Part shown: positions 4,978 to 21,179 of the stretch, in pieces
How the letters are laid out: every line of letters begins with the position of its first letter
Numbering within the stretch: position 1 is the first letter of the stretch
Assembly: GCA_038045005.1 (NCBI GenBank)
Contig: JBBSYZ010000013.1
Location: forward strand, 1-42,867
Source: Nanobdellota archaeon
GTDB taxonomy: Archaea > Nanobdellota > Nanobdellia > Woesearchaeales > GW2011-AR9
Direction of reading: 5' to 3'
Length of the DNA: 42,867 nt
Made by a program: the position numbers and the translations under genes
Notes under the pieces: generated by a model
Seen by the model: the letters and a program-made list of their open reading frames with translations, nothing else
The model's database searches: none
Told to the model about the DNA's origin: nothing

Positions 4978-6864
4978 TCAATATATCTTCTTGTATTTTG
5001 GGATGTATTCACATTCAATTTTTTTTGCACTATGGTAGGAGTATAAATCTCCAATTGTTTCATCGTCGAGCCCATTTAAAGACCTCCAACCTTCTGATTT
5101 TAGCTTTCCTGAATCCAAAATTACCCGATCTATTTTAAAACTTCCTGCTTCTTTAATCCTCTGGGCTTCTGCCCCTAATTTTTTCTGTCTTTCGGCTTCT
5201 TCTTCCTTCTTTTTCTGTTCTGCTTTCTTTTCGGATTTTTTTCTTTCTTTTTCTGCCTTAGAGATGTAACTTTGACATAGTTCTTCAACTTCATCCGAAA
5301 CACAGCTTAACTGAGATGCAAATCTTCCGGCAGCAGCCAGACCATGAGATTCTTCAAAATATCTCAGGGCAAACCCGTAGTCTTCAACATCATCAAATCT
5401 CTCAAATCCTTTTACAAGCACTTCTTTAAGACGTTTTGGGGATGGTTTCTCCAAATAGTAGTAATATATTTCAAGATGTTCTTCAAGATTCTTGGCTTTT
5501 TCAGCGGCATGGTCGGCAAACCTCATATAAAGGTCTTCATGGCCTTGTTCGAGGCAATATTCTGCGATAGCCAGACATTTATCTGGAGATCTCCTTTCGC
5601 CAAGACACTTTTCATAGAACTCTCCGGCAAGATTTTTAAGACCTTTATCGAGAAGGAAATCTCCTGTATCTTCGTAATCTGACAGACGTGCTCTTTTCTG
5701 CAGGGCTTGTTTGAAATAATCTCCTGCATCTTGTTTGTTTCTTTTAAGTACCTCTTCTCCAACTTGGACCAAATGCTTATAATCAGCATCAACAGCCAAA
5801 GCGTGGTCGAACAATGCTTCTGCTTGCGGGTATAATCCTTTTCCAGAAAGTAATTTGCCATAGGCAAAGATTTCATCAAAGGTATTTTTTTCGTACGCTG
5901 TCTCTTCAATAAAACCAGCAGCCAGTTCTGAAAGACCATCCTCTTTTATGGAGAACAATCTTTCAACAAGTTCCATCTTCTCTTCTTCATCCTTGTCTTC
6001 AAACAAATCCTTGGCAGTCTTTTCAACTAAACCGGCTATTTTGAGATCACGGTTCTTTTTATACATATCAAGAGCTAATTCAAATATTCCTTCTCTTTGC
6101 CCAATATCTGATAACTCGTAAGCGCGGTTTAGTTTATCAATCCCTTGGTTAAATATCTCTGCATTGCATGAACCAGCCATAAAGCCAGCCATCCTGACCA
6201 ATCTGGTGTAGTCGTCTTGTTCCCCATTAAACCTTTCGATCAGATTGATGGTTCTTTTGACGTCAAAAGACCTAAAATCGTATGCTTCTACTCCTCTCTC
6301 AAATAAACCATCATCCTTAAGCAGGCCACGAACAAGCAATGAGTTCGCATATTCTTCCCCTTGTTTTTTTCCTTTCTCAAAGTTGGTTATGGCCGCGTCA
6401 AATTCTTCTACCTTGTCTTCATCGAGAGCGAAAGTGTAATATGCTTTCCCCAGATTATGGTGGTCTGTTTTTTTTAGAGACCTCGCATCCCTTCCTTCTA
6501 TCTTTTCCGTAATAGATACTGCTACCTTCATTAATTGAAAGTCATCATTGTTAAATGAATAAGAGAATACGTTACGGGCAACATTAAGCAAAACATCGTC
6601 AGAAATCTGCCCTGCTAATTCCTGGGCGTATGACAACCCTTCTCTGGCATAATTATCTCCCATGCTTACCAGTGATTCTAACAAGATCATCTTTTGATTA
6701 TCATCTCCCCCGTTATGGACTATCCTTTTCAGACGTTCAAAACAGCCGTTTGAACCTGATTCTAATGTCTGGCAGATGAGACGTTGATCCAGCTGGGTCG
6801 CTCCCATGGAAAGTAATATTTCCAGATTATCTTCCAAATCTCCGATGATGTCTGCTGTTTTCAT
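4978..6864 (-). CDS. Helical-repeat (TPR-like) protein with a K/E-rich coiled coil and a small C-terminal domain; last gene of the MoxR/VWA operon
   Basis: 628 aa of repeated amphipathic helix pairs, then KAEKERKKSEKKAEQKKKEEEAERQKK. Its ATG overlaps the stop of the upstream 33-aa ORF (ATGA). Confidence 0.6.
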   Translation of the reverse strand: MKTADIIGDLEDNLEILLSMGATQLDQRLICQTLESGSNGCFERLKRIVHNGGDDNQKMILLESLVSMGDNYAREGLSYAQELAGQISDDVLLNVARNVFSYSFNNDDFQLMKVAVSITEKIEGRDARSLKKTDHHNLGKAYYTFALDEDKVEEFDAAITNFEKGKKQGEEYANSLLVRGLLKDDGLFERGVEAYDFRSFDVKRTINLIERFNGEQDDYTRLVRMAGFMAGSCNAEIFNQGIDKLNRAYELSDIGQREGIFELALDMYKKNRDLKIAGLVEKTAKDLFEDKDEEEKMELVERLFSIKEDGLSELAAGFIEETAYEKNTFDEIFAYGKLLSGKGLYPQAEALFDHALAVDADYKHLVQVGEEVLKRNKQDAGDYFKQALQKRARLSDYEDTGDFLLDKGLKNLAGEFYEKCLGERRSPDKCLAIAEYCLEQGHEDLYMRFADHAAEKAKNLEEHLEIYYYYLEKPSPKRLKEVLVKGFERFDDVEDYGFALRYFEESHGLAAAGRFASQLSCVSDEVEELCQSYISKAEKERKKSEKKAEQKKKEEEAERQKKLGAEAQRIKEAGSFKIDRVILDSGKLKSEGWRSLNGLDDETIGDLYSYHSAKKIECEYIPKYKKIY

Positions 6865-6962
6865 GCTGCAATCTTTGAAGCCGTTCTTTCTCTCTGCCGC
6901 TTCACAGCTGTAAGTTCTTCGATGACAGAGTCCAAATCTCCGATTATTGATTTCACTTCCAT
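6861..6962 (-). CDS. 33-aa ORF (MEVKSIIGDLDSVIEELTAVKRQRERTASKIAA) that duplicates the N-terminal motif of the next gene
   Basis: Hand-translated and below the track cutoff. It starts 3 nt after the VWA gene stop and its stop overlaps the next ATG. It shares a 14-nt identity (ATCGGAGATTTGGA) with codons 6-10 of the 628-aa gene. Confidence 0.4.
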   Translation of the reverse strand: MEVKSIIGDLDSVIEELTAVKRQRERTASKIAA

Positions 6963-6964
6963 TT

Positions 6965-9304
6965 TTATGATAGTCCCAAGTCCAGATCTATTTCAAACAA
7001 GTTCTTGTAAGTTTTTATCTGAAATACCTGTTGCCCTCTTTCCAACAATCCCTGAGCAAAAGATCTCATCTTGTTTTGCGCTTCTGAATCATTGTATCCA
7101 ACATCAGAATAATCCGCCCCATTATATTGGATGTATACAAATTCATGTCCTCTTTCTATCAGGTGATCAGCAGCGGCAAGCGCCCGGTCATGATTCCTGA
7201 TATAACCGTCGCTAAGCATTACGGTTAGTATCCTTTTATCTGGGTTTTCCCGTCCATGCTGTTTAAATAACCCTAAAAATTTTTTGATTTCCAGATTCTC
7301 GATACAGGCATCTCCGTATCCGTTATAGATGTAATTAAGTATCTTTTTCTCGTCTTCACTCCAGCCGGAAAACCTCGAATGATTACCGAACAAGAACGCG
7401 CCATAATTAACTCCAACAACGCCTAGCTCTTTGACCGTGTCTACGAAAGAACGCGCCAAGATACAAAAACAATCATATCCCTGTATTCCTGAATCTTTTT
7501 TTCTGAACCTTTCCCGGTCCCCGACTAAAGAGTAACCCATGCTTGCGCTGACATCGCCGATGAAAAGAACGTCTCTATCGAATGTTAACGGCTGCGGCGT
7601 GACCTCTTCCTTGACGGTTATCGGCGCCTGATGCTGATAAAATTGAAATTCTCCGGTTGGGAGAGCGATCGTACTCCCCCAGGCGATACCATCTAAGCTG
7701 GCGCCGATGCCGAATTCATTCAGCTCTGTTTTTGAAGCGTGCCCGATAACAAATTCAGATACGGTGGGCTCGTCTGAAGGTCTTACAGGAACCTTAAGTT
7801 TGCCGGCCAGTTTCTTATACAGCTGATCAATCTGAGAAAACTGAAGTTCTACTTTAGCTTCACCCATCGTTCCTGGAAGACCATGATCGCAGACATGAGG
7901 CTGCAAAAAAGGGGGTATTCCCTTGAACCCATCCCTGTTTACCTTGTACTTATTGATATAATCTTCTGGTCCGGGTCCGAATGCCCCCGACGGATTTCCT
8001 CTCCCCTTACCTGGATTGTCTTTAGAGAGATCTTCTAACGGATCGATCCTATTATCTTGTAGAGTTTCCGGAAGTTCGATTTCATTCCCTTCCCCAAAAT
8101 TATCTTCTCCATAATCAGAGGTGTCATCGCCAAAACTATCACTCTTTGAGCGATGGTCCACTTCCCCATTTATCTTATTCCTGAACTTTTTGTCTTTCTC
8201 ATATTTTTGGGTAAAATATTCTCCAGATGGTTTAAATGCGCCCCCGGAAATTCCTCCCGTTGCTGATCCTTGTTGCCCTTGCCCTTGTTGTCCATCGCCC
8301 TGTTGTCCTTGTGGTTGGCATTGCTGTTGCCCTTGCCCTTGTTGTCCGTCGCCCTGTTGTCCTTGTGATTGTCCTTGCTGTTGCCCTTGCCCTTGTTGTC
8401 CATCGCCCTGTTGTCCTTGTGATTGTCCTTGCTGTTGCCCTTGCCCTTGTCCCTGCCCTTGATCATACTGGTTAGGATCCGGCTGTTGCTGGTTGTCCAG
8501 CAAGTCATAGATTCTCTTTGTAAATTCATAAGCTTTGAGGTTCCACTTCTCCTTATCGTTCAGTTCTCCATAATAATCAAGCTCTTCATCACGGGAAAGA
8601 TCATTGTTCATGAGCTTGTCAGCTAATTCTTCACTATCACTAAAAATGTGAAAAAGATCTCTTGCCAGTTCTCCAGAATAATCTCTAGTGATGCCGCTTG
8701 CATATTCTCTAATCTCCCCTTCTCTCCAGAATGTCTTTAACTGCAGATCAACAAATTGGCCGAATAGTTGTTGGAATCCCTGTTGTTCACATTGGCCGTT
8801 TTCAGATCGGTGTAGGGAATTAAGAAAATAAAACGAGCTCATGCCGTTCCTGAACGATCCGCGTTCCTTATCTTTTAATGCATAACTGCAGTTGACAATA
8901 TAATCTTCAAATAGGTTGGCAACTTCAGGCACTAATTGGTCTTTCCTTCCATCAGCAACATCAAGCTCTTCCAAGGCGTCCCTGATACCTTCAACAATCT
9001 TCTTAAAATATTCTTCATCTCCCGGGCAGCCGAAGAAACCTTCGGGATTTTGGTTATGACCTAACTCGTGAAAAGATACGGCATACAACAAATCGTCGAG
9101 CAGATTCTTGCCGGGAATCAGACCTTGCGGAATCTGTTGCAGACTTTCTTCGATATTGCTGTCAACAGTAACATTGATTTTCCAATTCTGGATGTTGATG
9201 CAAGCATCTACATAGTAGGAAACGTCATCTACATTAGCCTCTACCTTGAACTTTCTGGCATTGATCTTCTTTACAATTCCCTTAAGTTTTTGTTCTAATG
9301 TCAT
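6965..9304 (-). CDS. Putative zincin (HExxH) N-domain, Q/G-rich linker and C-terminal von Willebrand A domain (DUF2201/COG3864-like MoxR partner)
   Basis: SFHELGH occupies aa 77-83 (its HELGH core is nt 9056-9070). It also has a Q/G tandem repeat, the MIDAS-like motif GDVSASMG (DxSxS) and MLSDGY. Confidence 0.75.
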   Translation of the reverse strand: MTLEQKLKGIVKKINARKFKVEANVDDVSYYVDACINIQNWKINVTVDSNIEESLQQIPQGLIPGKNLLDDLLYAVSFHELGHNQNPEGFFGCPGDEEYFKKIVEGIRDALEELDVADGRKDQLVPEVANLFEDYIVNCSYALKDKERGSFRNGMSSFYFLNSLHRSENGQCEQQGFQQLFGQFVDLQLKTFWREGEIREYASGITRDYSGELARDLFHIFSDSEELADKLMNNDLSRDEELDYYGELNDKEKWNLKAYEFTKRIYDLLDNQQQPDPNQYDQGQGQGQGQQQGQSQGQQGDGQQGQGQQQGQSQGQQGDGQQGQGQQQCQPQGQQGDGQQGQGQQGSATGGISGGAFKPSGEYFTQKYEKDKKFRNKINGEVDHRSKSDSFGDDTSDYGEDNFGEGNEIELPETLQDNRIDPLEDLSKDNPGKGRGNPSGAFGPGPEDYINKYKVNRDGFKGIPPFLQPHVCDHGLPGTMGEAKVELQFSQIDQLYKKLAGKLKVPVRPSDEPTVSEFVIGHASKTELNEFGIGASLDGIAWGSTIALPTGEFQFYQHQAPITVKEEVTPQPLTFDRDVLFIGDVSASMGYSLVGDRERFRKKDSGIQGYDCFCILARSFVDTVKELGVVGVNYGAFLFGNHSRFSGWSEDEKKILNYIYNGYGDACIENLEIKKFLGLFKQHGRENPDKRILTVMLSDGYIRNHDRALAAADHLIERGHEFVYIQYNGADYSDVGYNDSEAQNKMRSFAQGLLERGQQVFQIKTYKNLFEIDLDLGLS
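8277..8461. repeat. 54-nt tandem repeat, about 3.4 copies, encoding (GQGQQQGQSQGQQGDGQQ)n
   Basis: Copies lie at 8277-8330, 8331-8384 and 8385-8438, with a partial fourth. Copies 2 and 3 differ at one base. Confidence 0.9.
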
Positions 9305-9340
9305 GGTTACCAGTTTTCATCATATCCATCAAAATTGTCA

Positions 9341-10024
9341 TCAAACAGAATACCCTTTGTTTGCTCTCGCTTCATGATATCCATTGGCAGATCTGATTAA
9401 AGCATCAACCGTTCCTGATTTGTGATATTCTTCACGCATACTTTTCTCAGTAAGATATTCTTCATCGTCAAGAATGACATCTGAACTGACACATTCGTCG
9501 ATAAAATCTTGTATTGAATCGTAAGGTATAGGTCTGAACCTATGTCTGCCTTTCTGCTGCACGAAACGCTGCACGTCAGTCCTGATAAACCTAGCTTCTT
9601 CTTCGTAGCCTTCTGCAACAGACTGTTTATAGGAATTCATCAATATTCCGAGAGCAAAGCCCCATAAGTTATCTTTTAATAACTGCCCAAGCTGAACTGA
9701 AGACGATCCATTTTGCGGTTGGTTTATAGGGGGAAATCCAGATACGTTAGGTGAAGTGAATTGTGGGGCTGGTTGATTCACGGGAGTATATGCCGGCTGC
9801 GGCATCCCGGCCGGCTGGGGATCCAGAGGATCGGAAGAATACGCTTCTTCCGGTCCATTATCATAATCACCACCATAGTCGCTCCCATCATCTCTTTTTG
9901 GCGTGACTCTAACCGGTTCTTCTTTTATCATCCTTGGCTGTTTTATCGGGGTTTGAGAACTGGCTGCTTCATCTAATATCTTTTTCAGATCGTCAATGTT
10001 TCCTAATATGTCCTTCGGATTCAT
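9341..10024 (-). CDS. Hypothetical protein with an N-terminal DILGNIDDL helix, a P/Q-rich linker and an unknown C-domain
   Basis: 227 aa. Its start overlaps the AAA gene stop (ATGA). It has the low-complexity stretch PLDPQPAGMPQPAYTPVNQPAPQF. Confidence 0.55.
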   Translation of the reverse strand: MNPKDILGNIDDLKKILDEAASSQTPIKQPRMIKEEPVRVTPKRDDGSDYGGDYDNGPEEAYSSDPLDPQPAGMPQPAYTPVNQPAPQFTSPNVSGFPPINQPQNGSSSVQLGQLLKDNLWGFALGILMNSYKQSVAEGYEEEARFIRTDVQRFVQQKGRHRFRPIPYDSIQDFIDECVSSDVILDDEEYLTEKSMREEYHKSGTVDALIRSANGYHEARANKGYSV

Positions 10025-11157
10025 TTTTCATAACCTCTTATCACATCCGCAACTTCAACATCATAATCCTGCGACCGGTTTTCAAAGTCCTTGATGTTGG
10101 CCATCCAGACATCTTTCTCTTTGGCATATTTCTGCAGAAAATCAAGCATTCCCTGCTGATTCCCAGAGACTATGCATTTTACCAGATCCTTCTGGTGATC
10201 AGTATAAAATTTGGCAAACCGCCCATATGCTGAATTAATCACTCCTTGCACGGCGGCAAACTTATTGCCCTGATAAATTTTTTTTACCCATTGGCTGTTT
10301 ACCTCAATCTTACTATACAGGATGAATGGAGCCAGAGCAAGAATGTCTTCAGGTTTGACTTCAAGATTTTTAAGATAATCAGATTCCATAAATCTTTTTG
10401 TTGTTATCCTTTTCTTGCTGTCTGAACCGGCTGATTGTATTATCTGGACCAAAGACTTATAGGCGCGAACAGCAGCTACTGCTTTTCCTACGCTTTGCAG
10501 GTTGATCAGGCTTCGGTTTGTAGGAGCGTAAACACTGCCACAAATATTATTTTCTTCAGCCGCATGATGGCATCCTTTACAAAGGTCTAATGTGAACGCG
10601 ATCCCTTCTTTTGATCCGGTAGAACTTTTGATGCAGTTGCTTAGTCCGGAGAGGTATACTAAAAATTCGCGGGTCATCGCCGATAATGGTATCGAGCCAA
10701 TGCTTTGATATAATTGGATGACAGTATCCGTCATCGATCCGTCAACCTTTTCAACGGTTATAGCGCTGCTTTTCCTTCTCTTTATCATGTCCCTGATGTC
10801 CTGCTTTAAAGACTTGAACTGGTCAATAGGAATCTCGATGACCATCCTGTCACGGACAGCCTTGTCCATCTCTGCAATGCCTTTATATTCAGCCCCTTCG
10901 TTGATGGTCAGTATCCTGTATTGATATCGCTGACCTTTTGGAAGCTCTACCCCGACAGCAAAGTCAAGCCCTTTAATGTTGAACTCGTATTCTAGGTAAG
11001 GGATGAGAATGTTCTGGATAAGCGCTGGAGCCCTGTTGGCTTCGTTCAAGATAACTCCTGGATATGTGAGGATTGGAGTTGTACCGATGGATTCTTTCAG
11101 TGTCGCTCCGCCCTTTATCTTTCCAAAGTCAATATCTATGAATGCTTCTTCGTTCAT
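10021..11157 (-). CDS. MoxR-like AAA+ ATPase, C-terminal fragment (Walker B, sensor and lid regions)
   Basis: GVILNEANRAPALIQNILIPYLE matches the MoxR hhhhDEhNRAxxxxQxxLL region but has Asn at the Walker B Asp position. It is in the same frame as 11194..11439. Confidence 0.7.
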   Translation of the reverse strand: MNEEAFIDIDFGKIKGGATLKESIGTTPILTYPGVILNEANRAPALIQNILIPYLEYEFNIKGLDFAVGVELPKGQRYQYRILTINEGAEYKGIAEMDKAVRDRMVIEIPIDQFKSLKQDIRDMIKRRKSSAITVEKVDGSMTDTVIQLYQSIGSIPLSAMTREFLVYLSGLSNCIKSSTGSKEGIAFTLDLCKGCHHAAEENNICGSVYAPTNRSLINLQSVGKAVAAVRAYKSLVQIIQSAGSDSKKRITTKRFMESDYLKNLEVKPEDILALAPFILYSKIEVNSQWVKKIYQGNKFAAVQGVINSAYGRFAKFYTDHQKDLVKCIVSGNQQGMLDFLQKYAKEKDVWMANIKDFENRSQDYDVEVADVIRGYEK

Positions 11158-11193
11158 ACCTGGAGTTATCGTCCTGTTGACATATTGTCCTGT

Positions 11194-11439
11194 TCAAAAG
11201 AAGGCGTTCATGGCCATCTTGGCCAGATGAGTCTTACCTCCTCCGCTTTTTCCGGTCTCAAGAATGTCAGCATTTGCTATGGCTCCGATGGTAAGAAAAT
11301 CCTTGATATCTAAAGATACGGTTTCTCCCTCGTTCATCCCCTGCAATCGTACAAATTCTCTGGACTGCCTGAAATCAGTAGTTAAACTCCTTAACCTGTC
11401 TTCGAGCGTTGCAATATCTTTAATATCAGTTGGTTTCAT
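11194..11439 (-). CDS. MoxR-like AAA+ ATPase, N-terminal fragment (Walker A), ending at an in-frame TGA
   Basis: Walker A is ETGKSGGGKTHLAKMA. A TGA at 11194-11196 is followed by 12 open codons (TGQYVNRTITPG) in frame with the next ORF. Confidence 0.65.
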   Translation of the reverse strand: MKPTDIKDIATLEDRLRSLTTDFRQSREFVRLQGMNEGETVSLDIKDFLTIGAIANADILETGKSGGGKTHLAKMAMNAFF

Positions 11440-11617
11440 CTTCTTGAACTTCCTCCGGAACTTTTATCTTCACTTCAACAAGTGTTTTAGGCTTTAATTT
11501 AGTGTTAAGAATTTTAGGGATGACAATAATACTTTGACTTCCTTGTTTTGAGATCTGTTTTGTTAGTGTGAATTCAGCCATTTTCATATGTCTCTGATAT
11601 GCAAGACACCATACCAA
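11426..11617 (-). CDS. Small AbrB/SpoVT-like DNA-binding protein heading the operon
   Basis: KQISKQGSQSIIVIPKILNTKLKPKTLVEVKI resembles the swapped-hairpin AbrB motif. It overlaps the ATPase start by 14 nt, and a TTTATAAATA box lies upstream at about 11660-11675. Confidence 0.5.
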   Translation of the reverse strand: MVWCLAYQRHMKMAEFTLTKQISKQGSQSIIVIPKILNTKLKPKTLVEVKIKVPEEVQEDETN

Positions 11618-11806
11618 ATGTTATCCACCCCTTGGAAATTATTATTCAAGAACGTAGTTTATTTATAAATATTTCGGCGGTTTACTGTTATCCAGTAACA
11701 ACATATTTTAATCAAAAGAATGGGTAGTGCGAAGATTTGACTGATGCAATTTTAAACAATCAGTTCAAGATGCGGAAAGTTATCAATCAAATATTGACAC
11801 AACCAA

Positions 11807-12343
11807 TTATTCTAACACCAACTTCTGCCAATTCTCCCGGTAATACCTGTATTTCGCATCAAATTCTTCTTTAGGTGTCAACGAGATACCCAGCTTCTGC
11901 AATTTATCTTTCAACAGCCGCAGCGTTTCTTCCTGATCTTCCGGGGAAGACATCTTCTCCAATTCAAGGATATGCCCATATCCTCTGGTGCAGTCCAGCA
12001 TTACGCTGATACCTTCCCAATCAAACACCATCCTTTTCCGGAACCATTTGATATTAACTCCATATCCCAAACTTAAAAACAGTTTCTCCAGTATCTCAAA
12101 ATCTTCTTTATTAAATTTAATCTCTATCTCCTCGCGCTGCTCATCATGCAGTTTTCCTTTCTTAAGCCAGATTTTTGAATAAGTGTTATTGCGCTGGATG
12201 CGTAAATCCTGTTCGGCATCAAAGTAATAGGTTTCCTGATCGTCGTCGCTGATGAATTCAGCATTCTCTTTGAAAAATTCTAATAATTCTTCATACTTTT
12301 CCTGAGAAATAAAACTGCGGATCTCTATCTCAATGTTGTTCAT
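11807..12343 (-). CDS. CYTH-domain protein (CyaB/ThTPase-like triphosphate tunnel metalloenzyme)
   Basis: The N-terminal IEIEIRSF matches the ExExK/R signature, and the later REEIEIKF and ILELE are consistent with the tunnel fold. Confidence 0.65.
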   Translation of the reverse strand: MNNIEIEIRSFISQEKYEELLEFFKENAEFISDDDQETYYFDAEQDLRIQRNNTYSKIWLKKGKLHDEQREEIEIKFNKEDFEILEKLFLSLGYGVNIKWFRKRMVFDWEGISVMLDCTRGYGHILELEKMSSPEDQEETLRLLKDKLQKLGISLTPKEEFDAKYRYYRENWQKLVLE

Positions 12344-12360
12344 AAATTCTTCAGCTCCTA

Positions 12361-12690
12361 TCAGACTAAGGTAATCTCTATTTTATTCTTTCCGGTAGGC
12401 TCGATTATTACTTCCCGCCCTTTCCTAAGCTTCAAGATTTCAGCGATCGCTTTAGGGACTTTAACGTCAAGAGATGAGCCTGAAGTGCCTATATGTGTCT
12501 TTCGCGCCAAACCCCAGATTCCAGCTTCTTTTGCTTTTTCTTCAATCTGCTTGCTTACTGCTCCTTCAAATATAGTCTCTTCGCAGACCGGGCACACTAG
12601 AGCTTCAAATTTGCCCAGCGAGATTCCTAATTGAATAAAATCAACTTTTTTCTTGACAAAACTTGCTTTTTCACATTTATAACATTCCAT
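12361..12690 (-). CDS. Antitoxin-like protein: YgiT/MqsA-type zinc ribbon fused to an AbrB/SpoVT-like domain
   Basis: CYKC...CPVC zinc ribbon. The C-terminal LDVKVPKAIAEILKLRKGREVIIEP is AbrB-like. Confidence 0.6.
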   Translation of the reverse strand: MECYKCEKASFVKKKVDFIQLGISLGKFEALVCPVCEETIFEGAVSKQIEEKAKEAGIWGLARKTHIGTSGSSLDVKVPKAIAEILKLRKGREVIIEPTGKNKIEITLV

Positions 12691-12694
12691 GATT

Positions 12695-12907
12695 TCACCC
12701 GTTGATAAATACTGTTTTTATTAAAAACTTTGAACTTATTTTTTTATACGCAACCGAATAATAACTATAAACCGCAAGGAAACCACCGGTCTGTTGGTAT
12801 TTTGAGCCGCGCTCTAATGCTTCAAGGATCTGTTGAACCGATACCCCTTCAATATGCATCTTCTCTTGTGCGTGTTTTGTAACCACCAAATCTTCTTCAG
12901 TTAGCAT
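12695..12907 (-). CDS. DUF4258-like toxin candidate
   Basis: 70 aa with VTKHAQEKMHIEGVSVQQILEAL, the pattern typical of DUF4258. It lies 4 nt upstream of the Zn-ribbon/AbrB gene. Confidence 0.55.
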   Translation of the reverse strand: MLTEEDLVVTKHAQEKMHIEGVSVQQILEALERGSKYQQTGGFLAVYSYYSVAYKKISSKFLIKTVFING

Positions 12908-12959
12908 TTATACGCACCAATACGTACCAATACGTACTAATATATTTAAATCTTTCCTC

Positions 12960-13997
12960 TCAAAAGAAATTATTCAGCCCCTTCTGCGCCATCTCTTTCT
13001 GGATCTCTTTTAATTTTTCCAATTTTGCCCTTACTCTTTCTTCCCCGAAATCGTGCTCTTCCACCAATAATTTCAACAGTTTCTGCTCATCTATCTTTTT
13101 CCATTCCAGCGAATAATTATCGGTTACTGGGATATTTTTTATGGTGTCGAAAACTTTTTCCCACGATAATTCAGAATAATGCCGTTCCCATCCCGCCAGC
13201 CGGAAGATCTCCTCAAAATTCTTCCCATGCTCTTTCAGCAATTTCAATCCGGTTTTCGGGCCGATGCCCTTCACGCCGCCAGGGTTATAATCGGTGCCGA
13301 CTAAAATAGCCAGCACTATCAGCTGGTCTAAATCCAACCGAAGATTGTCCAGCACTTCCTGAAGCGAGATCATCTCCGGATTTACTTTCTGATAGGCGAA
13401 AGTTCCTGCTTTTTTACGTCTTCCTTCCACGGACAAGTTCCTCACCAGCAGCGGGCAGCCGAAGATCAAGTTGTCGTAATCCTGACTCACAGAAGCATAA
13501 GCGTCGCCATTTTTTACCATCCTGGCGGTCTGCGCTTCTCCTTCCGACGGCGCCTGCACGATAGGCAGACCCAAAGCCATTATTATTTCCTTAGCGTCTT
13601 CAATCATCTCTTTATTCAGTACCGCCGTCCTCGCGGCATATTTGCGCATCGCACCGACATCTCCCTTCACTTCCGCTCCCTTAAATTTCAATAACGCTTC
13701 TTTCTTTACCTGCGCCCTTTTTTCCCAGGTCTTCTGCTTGATCTCAGGAGCTTTTCCGTCAAAGACAAATACTAATTTCAATCCCTTCTCCATCAGGACT
13801 GTGGTCCTGCTGAAAAGCCCAATCAGATGCGAAGTTACCCGGCCCTTGCTGTCGGTGAGCACCGAACCGTCAGGTGAACGGATGGTAGTAAGAAACTGAT
13901 ATAACAGATTCATGGAATCTACCGCTAAGACTTTGCCTTTAAGGTCGCTGATGGAAATCTCTTTCTTTACCATCAATTCTTTAAAATTCAAGCCCAT
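12960..13997 (-). CDS. fen: Flap endonuclease 1 (FEN1)
   Basis: MGLNFKEL...LAVDSMNLLYQFL...VFVFDGKAPEIK. It has an H3TH region (GTDYNPGGVKGIGPKT) and a C-terminal PIP box (QKGLNNFF). Confidence 0.95.
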   Translation of the reverse strand: MGLNFKELMVKKEISISDLKGKVLAVDSMNLLYQFLTTIRSPDGSVLTDSKGRVTSHLIGLFSRTTVLMEKGLKLVFVFDGKAPEIKQKTWEKRAQVKKEALLKFKGAEVKGDVGAMRKYAARTAVLNKEMIEDAKEIIMALGLPIVQAPSEGEAQTARMVKNGDAYASVSQDYDNLIFGCPLLVRNLSVEGRRKKAGTFAYQKVNPEMISLQEVLDNLRLDLDQLIVLAILVGTDYNPGGVKGIGPKTGLKLLKEHGKNFEEIFRLAGWERHYSELSWEKVFDTIKNIPVTDNYSLEWKKIDEQKLLKLLVEEHDFGEERVRAKLEKLKEIQKEMAQKGLNNFF

Positions 13998-17693: not shown

Positions 17694-17809
17694 CGCTCCT
17701 GGTGGGATTTGAACCCACAAGTCTGGCAAGACAAAGGTTATCTTACCTCTCCCCAGTTTATTCGGGGAGACTTAAGACCTTCGCAATAACCAAATTATGC
17801 GACAGGAGC
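17694..17809 (-). tRNA. tRNA-Leu(UAA), class II, with a 31-nt canonical (37/38) intron
   Basis: Hand-folded. Acceptor GCUCCUG/CAGGAGC; 3-bp D stem; anticodon stem AAGGU/ACCUU with loop CUUAAG^...^A. The intron hairpin is UCUCCCC/GGGGAGA, and intron UAAG pairs with loop CUUA. Long variable arm GUCU-UGCC-AGAC; T arm GUGGG-UUCAAAU-CCCAC. A TATA box lies at about 17834-17845. Confidence 0.85.
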
Positions 17810-17852: not shown

Positions 17853-17950
17853 GGTTGTCCAGTGCATGAAATGTGAAAGTCCGAGCTTCTAAAACTAGAA
17901 AATTTTCAAGAATTACGCCTTTTAGCTTTTGTCCAGTGGTTGTCCAGTGC
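17853..17950. promoter_or_regulatory. Three copies of (GG)TTGTCCAGTG(C) upstream of the peptide/ThiF operon; candidate operator
   Basis: GGTTGTCCAGTGC occurs at 17853-17865 and 17938-17950, and TTGTCCAGTG at 17929-17938. The last two are tandem with 11-nt phasing. A TATA-like ATATATATAAA sits at about 18003-18013. Confidence 0.4.
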
Positions 17951-18056
17951 TGGCCACCAGTTTTCTTGCATCAAAATCTCAGTTTATTAAATTTACATGC
18001 CAATATATATAAACTAAACTCAAATTTCAATAAAAACTACTAATGGAGGGTAAAAC

Positions 18057-18212
18057 ATGGAGACCTTAGAACAAATTGCAAACGAGAAGACACCACAAGT
18101 TAAAGCAATAAATACGTATGAGTTACCTAAAAAAGCCCCGGAATATAAGGGGTTAGCCTTGCTGGAAGAAAAATCTTTTGATGGCCCAACAAGCATAAAA
18201 TACTGGATGTAA
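18057..18212 (+). CDS. 51-aa small protein, candidate precursor peptide (METLEQIANEKTPQVKAINTYELPKKAPEYKGLALLEEKSFDGPTSIKYWM)
   Basis: Hand-found and below the track cutoff. GGAGGG lies 7 nt upstream of the ATG, and the stop is 2 nt before the next gene start. Confidence 0.5.
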   Translation: METLEQIANEKTPQVKAINTYELPKKAPEYKGLALLEEKSFDGPTSIKYWM

Positions 18213-18214
18213 GT

Positions 18215-18823
18215 ATGATAAACCTTTCTTCTTTTTCTTTTATTTTTATTGGAGAAACTCACGGTTTTATTAATGATTTTGAAAAAGAGCGGGAGATAAT
18301 CAATAAAGTAAACCCGGAATTTGTGCTATCGGAACAAATGCAGGAAATAATTCTTGATACCAAAGAAAAATATTCTTATCTGATTCAAAAGCAAAAAATC
18401 TCAGAGTTAGTGTATTTTGAAGAAGTTAAAGATTTGATATTGCTTTGCCAAAAAAAGGGGATCAAACTAATCGGCATGGACTTGATTAATTTTGGATTCG
18501 GCGAAGAACTAATTTCTATTATAAAAGAAAAGAAATCACCGACTAAACTACAATCAAAACGAATAGAAGATACCTTGAAAAAAAGGGAATTAAAGCATTT
18601 AGAGATGATTAATTATCATAAGGGACAAGCCAAAGCCAAGAAACCAATCGTAGTGTTGTTAGGGTCGTGGCATTTAAGGGAAGATTCATTGCTAATGACT
18701 TCGCTAAATAATTATATTGCTTATTTTCCAAATGATTCTGAAGGGAACCAACTAATAGAACCACGCGGTAATATTAAGGATGTAAAATATGGTTATAGGA
18801 TTAAAAATGAACCAAAAAATTAA
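18215..18823 (+). CDS. Hypothetical protein with GExHG and GxxHL motifs (possible ChaN/EreA/TraB/Tiki-superfamily member)
   Basis: FIFIGETHGF is near the N-terminus and VVLLGSWHLRED near the C-terminus. The family assignment is tentative. Confidence 0.4.
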   Translation: MINLSSFSFIFIGETHGFINDFEKEREIINKVNPEFVLSEQMQEIILDTKEKYSYLIQKQKISELVYFEEVKDLILLCQKKGIKLIGMDLINFGFGEELISIIKEKKSPTKLQSKRIEDTLKKRELKHLEMINYHKGQAKAKKPIVVLLGSWHLREDSLLMTSLNNYIAYFPNDSEGNQLIEPRGNIKDVKYGYRIKNEPKN

Positions 18824-19859
18824 GCTTAAGGAATCTGTATATATCCTAAAGGAATCTGAGGAGATTTATCAAGTAGTATTCACTTCTACGAGAAGAATTA
18901 AGAGATTTAGCGTGGACCATTTGGTAAAAGAATTAATCTTTTCTGCAAAGTCAGAAACAAATATGCAAGAAGTTATTTCAAAGTTAGGGACGAAATATCC
19001 AGAAGAAGATATCGTTACGTGCTTATATTCCCTGGAAGCGGCCGGAATTGTTAACTTTTATGGTGATGATAAGATAAATCCAAGACATAAGAGACAGATT
19101 TCGTTTATCAATGAATTAACTGAAAATTGGGAAGAAACCATGAAATTACAAAAAAGGCTGGAGGAATCCAGAATTGCGGTATTTGGCATTGGTGGAATTG
19201 GAACCTGGATGGTTAACGGACTCAATCAGATCGGTATTGGGGAGATAAGGATAATCGATCCAGATATTGTAAGCATCAGCAATCTTAACCGCCAATTATT
19301 CTTTAATGAATCTGACCTCGGCCAGTACAAGGTTGACGTAATCTCTCAAAAACTTAGCGATGCAAACATTAAAAAATATTATGATACCGTTTCGAGAGAT
19401 CAACCATTGGATAAGATTGTGGAAAATTGCAATTTCTTAGTTAACTGTGCAGATTTTCCATCTGTTGCTGATACAACCAAAATAATAGATGAATATGCAA
19501 CAAGATATAATATCCCTTATAGTGTTGCGGGCGGTTATAATATGCATTTGGGGATGGTTGGCCCAATAATAGTTCCTGGAAAAACTGCTTGTTTTGATTG
19601 TTTCTTGGCTTATCAAAAAGAGAATGATCCATTAAGCAATTTGGAAAAAATTAAGGATGTCGAACAGACGGGAAGCTTAGGCCCGATCGCTGGAGCCATA
19701 GCGAATTTTCAAGTTATGGAAATTTTTAAATATATAACTGGAAAAGGTTCAGTGAACATTAACCGTTTTGTAGAAATAGATTTTATGGATTTTAACATAG
19801 AGTGGAGAGAATATTCTAAAAAACCAGATTGTATTACTTGTAATTTGCAGGCAAAGTGA
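18789..19859 (+). CDS. ThiF/MoeB/HesA-family E1-like adenylyltransferase with an N-terminal ~100-aa winged-helix (RRE/peptide-clamp-like) extension (MccB/PaaA-like architecture)
   Basis: VFGIGGIGTW (GxGxxG), DPDIVSISNLNRQ, CFDC...CITC zinc site. The N-extension is YILKESEEIYQVVFTSTRRIKRFSVDHLVKELI...CLYSLEAAGIV. An alternative start at 18807 (MNQKIK) is possible. It overlaps the upstream gene. Confidence 0.8.
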   Translation: MVIGLKMNQKIKLKESVYILKESEEIYQVVFTSTRRIKRFSVDHLVKELIFSAKSETNMQEVISKLGTKYPEEDIVTCLYSLEAAGIVNFYGDDKINPRHKRQISFINELTENWEETMKLQKRLEESRIAVFGIGGIGTWMVNGLNQIGIGEIRIIDPDIVSISNLNRQLFFNESDLGQYKVDVISQKLSDANIKKYYDTVSRDQPLDKIVENCNFLVNCADFPSVADTTKIIDEYATRYNIPYSVAGGYNMHLGMVGPIIVPGKTACFDCFLAYQKENDPLSNLEKIKDVEQTGSLGPIAGAIANFQVMEIFKYITGKGSVNINRFVEIDFMDFNIEWREYSKKPDCITCNLQAK

Positions 19860-19957
19860 TAAGTATTATTTATAATAATAGGAATATAATATTAGAGCAG
19901 GAATAATGTAATAATAGTCGCAAAAAGGTTTAATAATCCCGCCATCTTACTTCTACC

Positions 19958-20557
19958 ATGAACCGCGTTATCAAGCTACTGATGCTTTCAGATGTTTTTG
20001 TATTGACCGGCTTTGGATTGGTGCAGCCCATCCTGGCTATCTTCATCAAAGATAACATCGTCGGAGGAACCATCTTTGCGGCAGGATTAGCCAGCACTAT
20101 GTTTCTGATCACCAAATCAGCGATACAGCTTCCGTTTTCCCGCTATGTCGACCTGCATGATGATAAGATAAAATGGCTTATCGTCGGGACATTCTTTATC
20201 TCCTGCGTCCCATTCATCTATATTTTATCTGACCATATCTATTACATCTACGCCGCAGAGATAGTGCGCGGCATCGGCAGTGGATTGGCATTTCCGACCT
20301 GGCTGGGGTTGTGGAGCACTAATCTGGACAAACGAAAAGAAAGTTTTGAATGGAGTTTATACTCCACGCTGGTCAGCGTCGGAACCGCGGTCACCGCAGC
20401 TATAGGAGCATTGGTCGCTGAATATGTCGGATTTACGGCAACTTTTATCTTGGTGGGAGTCCTGTCATTGATCGGATGCATGGTGCTCTTGAAACTGCAG
20501 CACGAAAAAGTCAAACAGAAAGACGGGACTATCAAAAGATATAAGATTAAAACTTAA
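19958..20557 (+). CDS. Half-size (about 6-TM) MFS-like transporter
   Basis: 199 aa with six hydrophobic segments and the MFS-like loop FSRYVDLHDDK. The convergent rpe gene leaves no room for a second half. Confidence 0.55.
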   Translation: MNRVIKLLMLSDVFVLTGFGLVQPILAIFIKDNIVGGTIFAAGLASTMFLITKSAIQLPFSRYVDLHDDKIKWLIVGTFFISCVPFIYILSDHIYYIYAAEIVRGIGSGLAFPTWLGLWSTNLDKRKESFEWSLYSTLVSVGTAVTAAIGALVAEYVGFTATFILVGVLSLIGCMVLLKLQHEKVKQKDGTIKRYKIKT

Positions 20558-20567
20558 AGAAAATGCC

Positions 20568-21179
20568 TTAGAATGCGGCATCCAACAATTTCATCCTTTC
20601 TTTCGGCTGCTCTGCTTTGGTTATGAAAGATCCGGATACGATGAAATCTGCTCCGGCTTTGACCGCTTCCTTCGCGGTCGCCGGATTCATGCCCCCGTCA
20701 ACGATTATCTTTATTTTGGGGTTTATTTTCTGGACTTCTTTTATTTTCTTAAGTGGATAGCGCAGATATTTTCCGCCGTAAAAACCCGGGTGGACCGTCA
20801 GGATAAGAACATAATCTATTTTCCCCAGATAGGGTTTGATCTTATTTACAGAAGTTTCCGGATTTAGGGCGAAGGCGATCTTCCTACCCCCCATATTTTT
20901 TATGTGATCGGCTATACTTACGGTCTCTGCCTGGACAATGCAAAATTCAACTTTTTTACCATGTTTCCTGATCCAGGACCCCGGTTCTTTTACCATTAGA
21001 TGGGCGATGTACCGGAATTTAGGACTTAACTTAAACGGAAACCATAACGATCTGTTCGGAACAAATTTTCCGTCAGCGACATCCAGATGCAGATATTTCA
21101 CCGTCCCACGAAGATTATCAAAGATTGCATCTAATTCCAGCTGATCTTTAGCCATGATTGAAGGAAAGATATGTTTCAT
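20568..21179 (-). CDS. rpe: Ribulose-phosphate 3-epimerase
   Basis: HLDVADGKFVPN and VDGGMNPATAKEAVKAGADFIVSGS. Confidence 0.85.
   Translation of the reverse strand: MKHIFPSIMAKDQLELDAIFDNLRGTVKYLHLDVADGKFVPNRSLWFPFKLSPKFRYIAHLMVKEPGSWIRKHGKKVEFCIVQAETVSIADHIKNMGGRKIAFALNPETSVNKIKPYLGKIDYVLILTVHPGFYGGKYLRYPLKKIKEVQKINPKIKIIVDGGMNPATAKEAVKAGADFIVSGSFITKAEQPKERMKLLDAAF

Follow-up and report, generated by a model that had tools for sequence, protein, structure and literature searches.

The contig JBBSYZ010000013.1 of a Nanobdellota archaeon (assembly GCA_038045005.1), which was analyzed over its whole length of 42,867 nt (the window), carries a compact minus-strand gene cluster built around a MoxR-class AAA+ ATPase and a protein that combines an HExxH motif with a domain of the VWA (von Willebrand factor A) type. 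According to a reading that we hold with about as much belief as doubt, this cluster represents a rare accessory MoxR-VWA machine of uncultured archaea, which remodels or processes partners recruited by a common tag, and which is dispensable, horizontally exchanged and concerned with conflict or stress rather than being a housekeeping chaperone. Judging from its sequence, the module is probably switched off in this strain. MoxR-VWA pairs are widespread, yet to our knowledge few have a known client, and the manner in which clients are chosen is largely unknown.

The partners are recognized by their N-termini. Three proteins of the cluster, of 227, 33 and 628 amino acid residues, begin with the acidic tag M-[NK]-P-E-D-I-I-G-D-L-[DE]-D-x-L-E-x-I-L, which in the window reads MNPKDILGNIDDLKKILDE, MEVKSIIGDLDSVIEEL and MKTADIIGDLEDNLEILLS, respectively. 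This tag of 18 residues was found on no fewer than 16 proteins, whose bodies are of several kinds, among the related contigs or loci that were compared with the window (L001-L034; individual related proteins bear P-numbers). It heads the relatives of the 227- and 628-residue proteins in every lineage carrying them, and is also present on proteins of 262 and 295 residues in L032, the bodies of which are unrelated. A motif scan of all open reading frames (ORFs) of all loci matched only the N-termini of the 227-like, 33-residue and 628-like ORFs, the sole exception being a weak match inside a 39-residue shadow ORF in L030. Neighboring genes of L027 possess near-identical tags, MKPEDIVGELDDLEEI and MKPEDIVGDMDDNLEI; and the tag and the proteins are conserved over lineages which are 26-69% identical. 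In the archaeal branch the ATPase and its proposed adaptor, the HExxH/VWA protein, are accompanied by a small upstream gene and by one to four tagged partners with unrelated bodies. A preliminary description of this DNA had considered the partner set unlike any that could be named. The set is indeed unusual, the family of the 628-residue protein numbering 13 representatives among 1.84 billion proteins; the shared tag had been overlooked.

The six ORF frames, read from the sequence, all lie on the minus strand within 4978-11617, exactly where they had first been placed. They are listed here with the other features of the locus.

4978-13080, no strand: near-identical block shared by two populations, ~8 kb (DUF4258-like, Zn-ribbon/MazE-like and CYTH genes plus the operon)
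4978-6864, minus: 628-aa ORF
6808-6852, minus: tag of the 628-aa protein, DIIGDLEDNLEILLS
6861-6962, minus: 33-codon ORF
6965-9304, minus: 779-aa ORF (HExxH/VWA adaptor)
8271-8450, minus: 54-nt tandem repeat (Tandem Repeats Finder: 3.3 copies, 96% matches), giving an 18-aa Q/G-rich unit in the linker
9341-10024, minus: 227-aa ORF
9968-10012, minus: tag of the 227-aa protein, DILGNIDDLKKILDE
10021-11439, minus: ATPase frame, 472 codons including an in-frame TGA
11426-11587, minus: small first gene; ATG 11587 as the start gives 53 aa (TTG 11617 being the alternative)
11658-11670, minus: TATA-like box ATTTATAAATAAA, read from the sequence, putative promoter element
11682-11698, no strand: palindrome TTACT-N7-AGTAA (TTACTG-gataa-CAGTAA), a candidate operator that lies upstream of the promoter

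The small ORF and the ATPase frame overlap by 14 nt (11426-11439), and ATGA overlaps join the ATPase to the 227-aa ORF (10021-10024) and the 33-codon ORF to the 628-aa ORF (6861-6864), in agreement with the earlier account. The near-abutting boundaries reported there hold for most junctions; the spacing between the 779-aa and 33-codon ORFs is 2 nt rather than 3 nt, and the 227- and 779-aa genes are 36 nt apart. The TATA-like box noticed upstream is present and sits ~70-90 nt before the candidate ATG starts of the small first gene, with a Shine-Dalgarno-like GGGGTGG in between. Downstream, the gene for a Trm5/TYW2-type methyltransferase comes next, and a separate TATA box precedes its ATG by ~30 nt, so the transcription unit plausibly ends with the 628-aa gene. 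The operon is not a six-gene unit as first described: five genes recur in relatives, and the sixth is a 33-codon ORF specific to the species.

The ATPase family comprises 24 clusters among 5.8 billion proteins, and the HExxH/VWA partner adjoins the ATPase in 16 loci, including bacterial metagenome-assembled genomes (MAGs; e.g., that of a Desulfobacterales bacterium). Deeper family members were found by contig scans anchored on the ATPase; a search with the linker-trimmed family alignment, in which the 8000 candidates sharing most words were scored, yielded only the three relatives already known. The full order of small gene, ATPase, 227-like gene, adaptor and tetratricopeptide repeat (TPR) gene is found in four cases, i.e., the window species, L002, L003/L004, and L030 with L031 (same sample), and part of it in L006 with L028/L029 (same MAG). 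L032 presents a variant: after the ATPase come three complete tagged proteins, which have two types of body, and a fourth tagged ORF truncated by the contig end, and no VWA gene stands among these. L033/L034 and L010 contain the small gene, ATPase and adaptor, together with extra proteins having a different repeated acidic motif. Since the core gene order recurs in independent lineages, at least five of them archaeal, the orthologues are not scattered, which was the outcome that the earlier account had named as a refutation, and the cluster is more than a product of chance.

Two further observations concern N-terminal and acidic elements in these relatives. The extra proteins of L010 (5152-5763) and L034 (3415-4086), loci that are without the DIIGDL tag, carry repeated T-x-E-E-L-x-x-[IL]-R-x-E-L motifs, which may be an analogous docking element. 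In L028/L029 (3453-5381; 2-214), by paralogous TPR genes, two or three proteins have another common N-terminal module, GL.KFP.A.(S/N)YE.AF.(M/F)V, fused to different β-rich bodies; this is a second case of one module on adjacent genes.

The ATPase, its proposed adaptor and the accompanying proteins

The motifs and the modeled structure of the ATPase place it in the MoxR class of AAA+ proteins. Its sequence, when read through the stop codon, gives a marginal match to Pfam AAA_5 over residues 62-199, across the stop (22.5 bits versus a cut-off of 22; E 1.3e-4). Walker A is GKSGGGKT (residues 63-70), of which G63, G66, G68 and K69 are at least 90% conserved among the 24 members. Of the Walker B region, GVILNEANRAP, both the Glu and the signature NRAP line up with ILADEVNRSP in the MoxR-like protein 2r44, to which sensor-2 R309 aligns as well; the Arg-finger region is AVRDRM. 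A PDB profile search also recovered 2r44 (E 1.4e-3). A confident AlphaFold2 model based upon 24 sequences (pLDDT 86.6, pTM 0.88) was submitted to Foldseek, which ranked 2r44 first (E 6.5e-13, TM 0.71 on target) and RavA second to fifth, followed by MCM, BchI and NorQ, the last at rank 50. RavA, MCM, BchI and NorQ are the expected structural neighborhood for the MoxR (helix-2-insert) clade. The lid region contains four invariant Cys residues (269, 287, 290 and 300), the protein ends in a long, family-specific helical extension, and residues 1-58 contain no Trp-based motif.

The 779-residue adaptor consists of an N-terminal HExxH (zincin-like) domain, a flexible Q/G-rich linker and a VWA domain which ends the protein and is supported at the family level only. 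The single protein has no Pfam match. The alignment of 13 family members reveals a C-terminal domain in which D-x-S-x-S and DG are invariant and which contains an FSGW strand; the family profile finds VWA domains of known structure (4cn8 at E 3e-10), and the family consensus scores 32.8 bits against Pfam VWA (PF00092), where the cut-off is 23.8. The claim that a MoxR-like AAA+ protein adjoins a VWA protein is therefore borne out by the profile match and the Pfam score, together with the weak AAA_5 match, the motifs aligned to 2r44 and the Foldseek matches to 2r44 and RavA. In the window, HELGH lies at 9056-9070 and DVSAS at 7541-7555, and SDG is also present. The N-terminal domain extends over ~270 residues: within HELGH, conservation reaches at least 90% at H79 and E80 and is complete at G82; an invariant Cys93-Pro94 is found ten residues on, and there is a conserved N-x-F-x-D-x-I-V-N helix (NLFEDYIVN in the window). 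Candidate third zinc ligands are C93 and the conserved Asp of NLFEDYIVN. The AlphaFold2 model of this protein (four-sequence alignment; pLDDT 33.5) was not used.

Assignment of the adaptor to the DUF2201-type metallopeptidase-VWA proteins, as had been suggested, could not be substantiated. Neither PF13203 (DUF2201_N) nor PF09967 (DUF2201) matches the 779-residue protein, seven of its relatives or the family consensus. With hhalign only the VWA part aligns to three DUF2201 proteins (probability 84%, E 7e-6), and the comparison of the N-terminal domain with DUF2201_N is not significant (E 0.08, probability 0.7%). Sequence matches to the DUF2201 proteins P0004-P0006 cover 3-9% of the query and most likely lie in the shared Q/G-rich linker; they were consequently not counted as homology.

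The linker also accounts for length differences. Its 54-nt repeat varies in copy number between near-identical strains, the adaptor measuring 779, 761 or 743 residues (steps of 18) among assemblies that are otherwise >99.7% identical. The window VWA domain is 48% identical to that of L007, the HExxH domain of which is only 35% identical, so that the adaptor is a domain mosaic.

Behind its tag, the 227-residue protein possesses a P/Q-rich linker, which confirms the P/Q-rich nature ascribed to its middle part, and a conserved C-terminal domain of ~110 residues. Orthologues occur between the ATPase and VWA genes in L001-L004 and L006, and a shorter relative in L027-L029. The protein has no match in Pfam, PADLOC, NCBIfam or PHROGs; overall, the NCBIfam and PHROGs searches gave only non-significant matches for the non-ATPase proteins. 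The 628-residue protein, previously described as a helical-repeat protein, consists of the tag, a TPR-like solenoid, a charged helix near the C-terminus (now confirmed) and a small C-terminal domain. Its TPR-like character is indicated by sub-threshold Pfam matches of the protein itself (TPR_12, TPR_8 and TPR_15), by matches of the family profile to the TPR proteins BBS8 (E 2e-4) and YrrB (E 6.6e-3), and by one family member which reaches Pfam TPR_12 at E 9.4e-7. Orthologues or paralogues are found in L002, L003, L027-L030 and L032. The 33-codon ORF, a candidate gene found only in the window species, carries the tag alone (SIIGDLDSVIEEL) and is absent from L002 and L003, in which the VWA gene directly adjoins the TPR gene. 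It shares with the 5′-end of the 628-aa gene an identical stretch of 14 nt, ATCGGAGATTTGGA, and looks like a partial duplication of that end.

Orthologues of the small first gene, encoding 48-66 residues, precede the ATPase in ten loci (L001-L006, L010, L031, L032 and L033). To judge from these, translation is more likely to begin at ATG 11587 or 11581 than at TTG 11617. We propose that the product is a DNA-binding autoregulator. The upstream inverted repeat, reported as TTACTG-N5-CAGTAA, is present, and the palindrome TTACT-N7-AGTAA that it forms occurs once in the 42.9-kb window versus 0.02 expected. The same palindrome with the same spacing is found once in L003/L004, directly upstream of the small first gene, where the ATPase is 69% identical; it is absent from 21 other loci. 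The simplest reading is that the palindrome would be a conserved operator for the small protein. In L006 the small first gene has its start within the overlap with a gene for a 548-residue Ser/Thr protein kinase (8207-9853; Pkinase E 5e-23), and that operon is consequently without a promoter gap of its own.

The in-frame stop codon and the exchanged block

The preliminary description had treated the ATPase as one intact ORF and overlooked that codon 82 is a TGA (11194-11196), which splits the frame into pieces of 81 and 378 residues. Position 82 is Gly in all relatives, the column being at least 90% conserved in the 24-member family alignment. The DNA at this site reads TTCTTTTGAACA in the window versus TTCTTTGGAACA in three contigs of a sister population. 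The GGA allele is found in L001, L005 and L009, and the TGA allele in L021/L024, L025 and L026; contigs of the latter type are 99.97-100% identical to the window over the operon when the variable linker repeat is excluded. The ATPase frame is intact in L001, L005 and P0007.

Sequencing or assembly error was ruled out as a source of the TGA, because the same allele recurs in assemblies from three independent read sets. Recoding of the codon as Gly or selenocysteine was likewise rejected, since TGA is an ordinary stop here, terminating 17 of 40 long ORFs in this genome (among them the ATPase itself, via the ATGA overlap), and the sister population has GGA. The 378-residue piece that remains does not include the Walker A loop; the motor of this strain is most likely non-functional.

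Such an allele is what one would expect of a decaying relic, i.e., a pseudogenized cluster without current function in this organism, and other single-base disruptions point the same way: the ATPase gene of L009 (contig coverage 4x) and the 227-aa gene of L026 have each lost 1 nt, and the adaptor gene of L002 is frameshifted close to its 5′-end. Such changes may stem from real decay or from assembly noise. We nevertheless judge a relic to be very unlikely: all other window ORFs are intact, the sister population has an intact ATPase, the proteins and the 18-residue tag have been conserved across the divergent lineages mentioned above, and the operon lies in a block >99% identical between populations, suggesting recent spread rather than neglect.

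One boundary of this block was deduced from comparison with L001, L005 and L009. Above ~13,080 the identity is 93-96% (~95%), whereas below this point, and through the whole operon, it is 99.0-100%. A block of 99-100% identity inside ~95% flanks indicates recent exchange between the window and H41/H52 populations. Its size is a lower bound (at least 8 kb), since the contigs of the sister population end. The contigs of the closest relatives (Hain_H52 and Hain-H41) point to a groundwater metagenome series.

Several other genes in or near the block deserve mention. At its edge, a 70-residue DUF4258-like protein (12695-12907, minus strand; E 1.2e-4, slightly short of the cut-off) precedes a 109-residue protein (12361-12690, minus strand) with an N-terminal Cys4 zinc ribbon and a weakly MazE/AbrB-like C-terminus (E 0.012); the two resemble a toxin-antitoxin pair. 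A CYTH-domain gene (11807-12343, minus strand; Pfam E 1.6e-9) lies immediately upstream of the operon, likewise within the block. Since it is not beside the operon in L002, L003, L006, L007 and L010, this association may be due to chance. CYTH proteins also adjoin distant ATPase/adaptor pairs in L014 (7705-8418), L015 (6173-7011) and L017 (2978-4492). Elsewhere in the window, a stretch of low GC content (0.32-0.35; ~17,860-20,590) contains ThiF/E1-like, 202-aa and 51-aa genes next to a RadC/JAB gene. The ThiF/E1-like stretch is present in the window strain (L024) and missing from the sister population (L001), and may be a strain-variable ubiquitin-like conjugation set. It is bordered by a 116-nt tRNA (17694-17809, minus strand), found by Rfam and missed by ARAGORN in bacterial mode, which is consistent with an intron-containing archaeal tRNA.

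Proposed mechanism and role

In the mechanism envisaged, the ATPase would form a ring, like MoxR proteins, and the VWA protein would serve as its adaptor. The shared acidic tag would dock each partner onto the machine, most likely on the ATPase itself; the alternative is the MIDAS (metal ion-dependent adhesion site) face of the VWA domain, which binds carboxylates. The ATPase is favored as the receptor because the tagged genes of L032 follow it without a VWA gene in between, and because no other elements are as well conserved as the ATPase and the tag. Hydrolysis of ATP would then remodel the partners or expose them to the HExxH domain for cleavage, the outcome being that a TPR-scaffolded complex is assembled or released. 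The small first protein would repress the operon at the TTACT-N7-AGTAA palindrome.

An accessory function in conflict or stress is favored because the family is rare and patchy, because its binding module evolves rapidly and knock-out alleles are known, and because of the exchange of the block. Since the operon proteins contain no recognizable effector or toxin domain, this is only a weak preference, and a number of other observations weigh against the proposed machine or its role. PADLOC-DB 2.0 yielded zero matches for all six proteins at E values up to 0.1. A search for empty-site variants by exact look-up of flanking proteins found the operon in every site-spanning contig of the species, so that presence/absence variation between close strains, for which a check had been suggested, was not seen among them. 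The Walker B Asp of the ATPase is replaced by Asn (hhhhNE for hhhhDE) throughout the family. As for the adaptor, both motifs reported for it, the HELGH zincin motif and the DxSxS of the MIDAS, were located; the MIDAS is only partly intact. D584, S586, S588 and the distal Asp D699 (of SDG) are present, and the Thr-bearing "GGT" loop of most members is replaced by "DACIENL" in the window and L007 subgroup, so the metal site would be four-fifths canonical in this subgroup, the loop alignment being uncertain. The HExxH domain has no significant match to a peptidase family, the best being Peptidase_M48 at E 0.15 with the family consensus, and in L017 and L008, two members of the family, the HExxH motif has degenerated. 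The small protein had been labeled AbrB-like, and its G-x-Q-x-I-x-V-I-P-K-x-L pattern resembles SpoVT/AbrB only by eye: Pfam PF04014 matched none of five small-protein orthologues even at E 10, and the best fold-relevant match of a PDB profile search was 2glw at E 1.1, which leaves the label without statistical support and the fold unproven. Lastly, the indels in L009, L026 and L002 would count against the proposal if they are assembly errors.

A bolder version of the proposal, which we consider rather unlikely, holds that the tag helix is a new kind of recruitment tag, bringing interchangeable payloads to a MoxR motor. The operon would then be a minimal archaeal counterpart of the adaptor-driven, NTPase-gated conflict systems known from multicellular bacteria, that is, an immune or self-limiting switch in DPANN archaea which is gained, swapped and knocked out at the population level.

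A different role is suggested by the characterized MoxR-VWA pairs, the established function of which is that of a dedicated maturation chaperone. Like NorQ/NorD, CbbQ/CbbO or CoxD/E/F, the machine would insert metal into, or activate, one housekeeping enzyme, with the tagged proteins as assembly factors. The flanks of the operon in the window would suit such a role, being archaeal housekeeping genes (FEN1, a CYTH protein, tRNA-intron endonuclease, the Trm5/TYW2-type methyltransferase and a glycosyltransferase). However, no candidate client enzyme is conserved beside the operon, and the flanking neighbors differ in every other lineage; the family is extremely rare; and the nonsense allele persists in a widely sampled strain. 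Furthermore, divergence is much more rapid in the substrate-binding VWA domain than in the ATPase. Between the window and L002 the identity is 87% for the ATPase, 77% for the HExxH domain, 54% for the TPR protein, 45% for the 227-aa protein and 34% for the VWA domain. A maturation chaperone is, in our opinion, quite unlikely.

Consideration was also given to a morphogenesis module of viral or mobile-element origin, either domesticated or a remnant, in which the P/Q-rich and TPR/coiled-coil proteins would form a filament or surface structure. A MoxR-VWA pair is needed for tail growth in Acidianus two-tailed virus (ATV), and a Foldseek search against viral models returned phage MoxR-like ATPases and ATV ORF618 (rank 5). 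Bro-N genes, common in viruses and mobile elements, occur near the operon in L003 (16822-17667) and L032 (4825-5691). In distant, mostly bacterial relatives (L008:727-5265, L011:5634-7735 and L015:2-2095) the ATPase/adaptor pair lies beside compact RNA-polymerase-like genes with Rpb2 and Rpb1 domains, which are typical of selfish elements; one of these encodes a fused protein of 1512 residues in a Desulfobacterales MAG. The literature consulted contained no paper tying MoxR-vWA to compact RNA polymerases, and little on DUF2201. The architecture also fits a pair described from jumbo phages (PMC7824862). Against such a derivation, no relatives of the ATPase were found in IMG/VR contigs, GenBank phages or plasmids (PLSDB), on which ground a virus or plasmid origin was rejected. 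Moreover, no capsid, portal, terminase or integrase gene is among the listed flank genes of the window, and the GC content of the operon is like that of its surroundings. We therefore regard a morphogenesis module as unlikely.

Returning to the accessory machine with tag-recruited partners, this very rare branch provides a hypothesis of client recruitment that is simple and open to testing, namely one conserved N-terminal helix on several unrelated proteins encoded by neighboring genes. It also offers natural on/off alleles of the motor (GGA/TGA) in co-occurring groundwater populations, plus a conserved candidate operator. If it is true that the tag docks, it would provide a handle on substrate selection by MoxR proteins; if the system is conflict-related, it would add to the accessory biology of DPANN archaea; and if neither holds, the locus is an annotated example of a divergent MoxR-VWA operon.

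Comparison with known systems

Among the characterized pairs, the MIDAS of the VWA domain in CbbQO binds a carboxylate of the client, which is remodeled upon ATP hydrolysis (PMC4660213), and NorQ pulls on the linker of NorD (PMC13036017). NorQ/NorD, CbbQ/CbbO and RavA/ViaA resemble the present pair in that a MoxR ATPase gene is accompanied by a VWA adaptor gene, with a linker between the adaptor body and the VWA domain, and the cluster would work in the manner of such chaperone/adaptor pairs. In contrast to them, the operon has no linked client enzyme, its adaptor bears an HExxH motif and is without the MIDAS Thr, and its ATPase has Asn in Walker B. Unlike these pairs, too, the cluster behaves as an accessory, exchangeable element.

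In the ternary conflict systems, one N-terminal adaptor, the effector-associated domain (EAD), recurs on adjacent genes with differing bodies (PMC7159879). The operon had been likened to such NTPase-VWA systems, and there is resemblance to the VMAP/iSTAND systems (Kaur et al. 2020, PMC7159879) in the MoxR + vWA core with further helical components, in the faster evolution of the vWA and third components relative to MoxR, and in the presence of the same N-terminal adaptor, their EADs, on neighboring genes with different bodies. The shared element here, however, is a helix of 18 residues, as opposed to a domain. The order is small gene, MoxR, 227-aa gene, HExxH-vWA and TPR protein instead of VMAP-MoxR-vWA; the MoxR protein is without the N-terminal WxhapG motif; and the vWA domain is C-terminal with no effector domains after it, the extra domain being N-terminal. 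VMAP/iSTAND systems occur in bacteria, with an enrichment among multicellular forms; the present operon belongs to tiny-celled archaea. Gene order, MoxR motif and vWA effector tails thus all differ and PADLOC found nothing, so that on sequence grounds the operon does not appear to be a member of the VMAP or iSTAND systems.

With p618 of ATV the ATPase shares the property of being an archaeal MoxR-type ATPase that works with a VWA protein. The match to ATV ORF618 is structural only (11% identity), the viral VWA partner has been described without a peptidase domain, and there is no viral context here.

A closer likeness is to the group 2.2 MoxR + metallopeptidase-vWA pair of jumbo phages, proposed to act as a chaperone plus processing protease (PMC7824862), and to the DUF2201_N + DUF2201 proteins P0004-P0006: in each, the MoxR gene stands beside that of a protein with an N-terminal HExxH motif and a C-terminal VWA domain. 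The DUF2201 proteins and the 779-aa family both have a Q/G-rich low-complexity linker between the domains, and DUF2201_N and this family share an N-x3-D-x3-N motif in the same register after HExxH. Unlike the DUF2201 proteins, this family has the invariant Cys-Pro after HExxH and an extra helix of ~28 residues. It is further set apart from metallopeptidase-vWA pairs by an ATPase of 472 residues with a Cys4 cluster and helical extension, by the small upstream gene and by the tagged partners. The MoxR + metallopeptidase-vWA pair is, nonetheless, the nearest described architecture.

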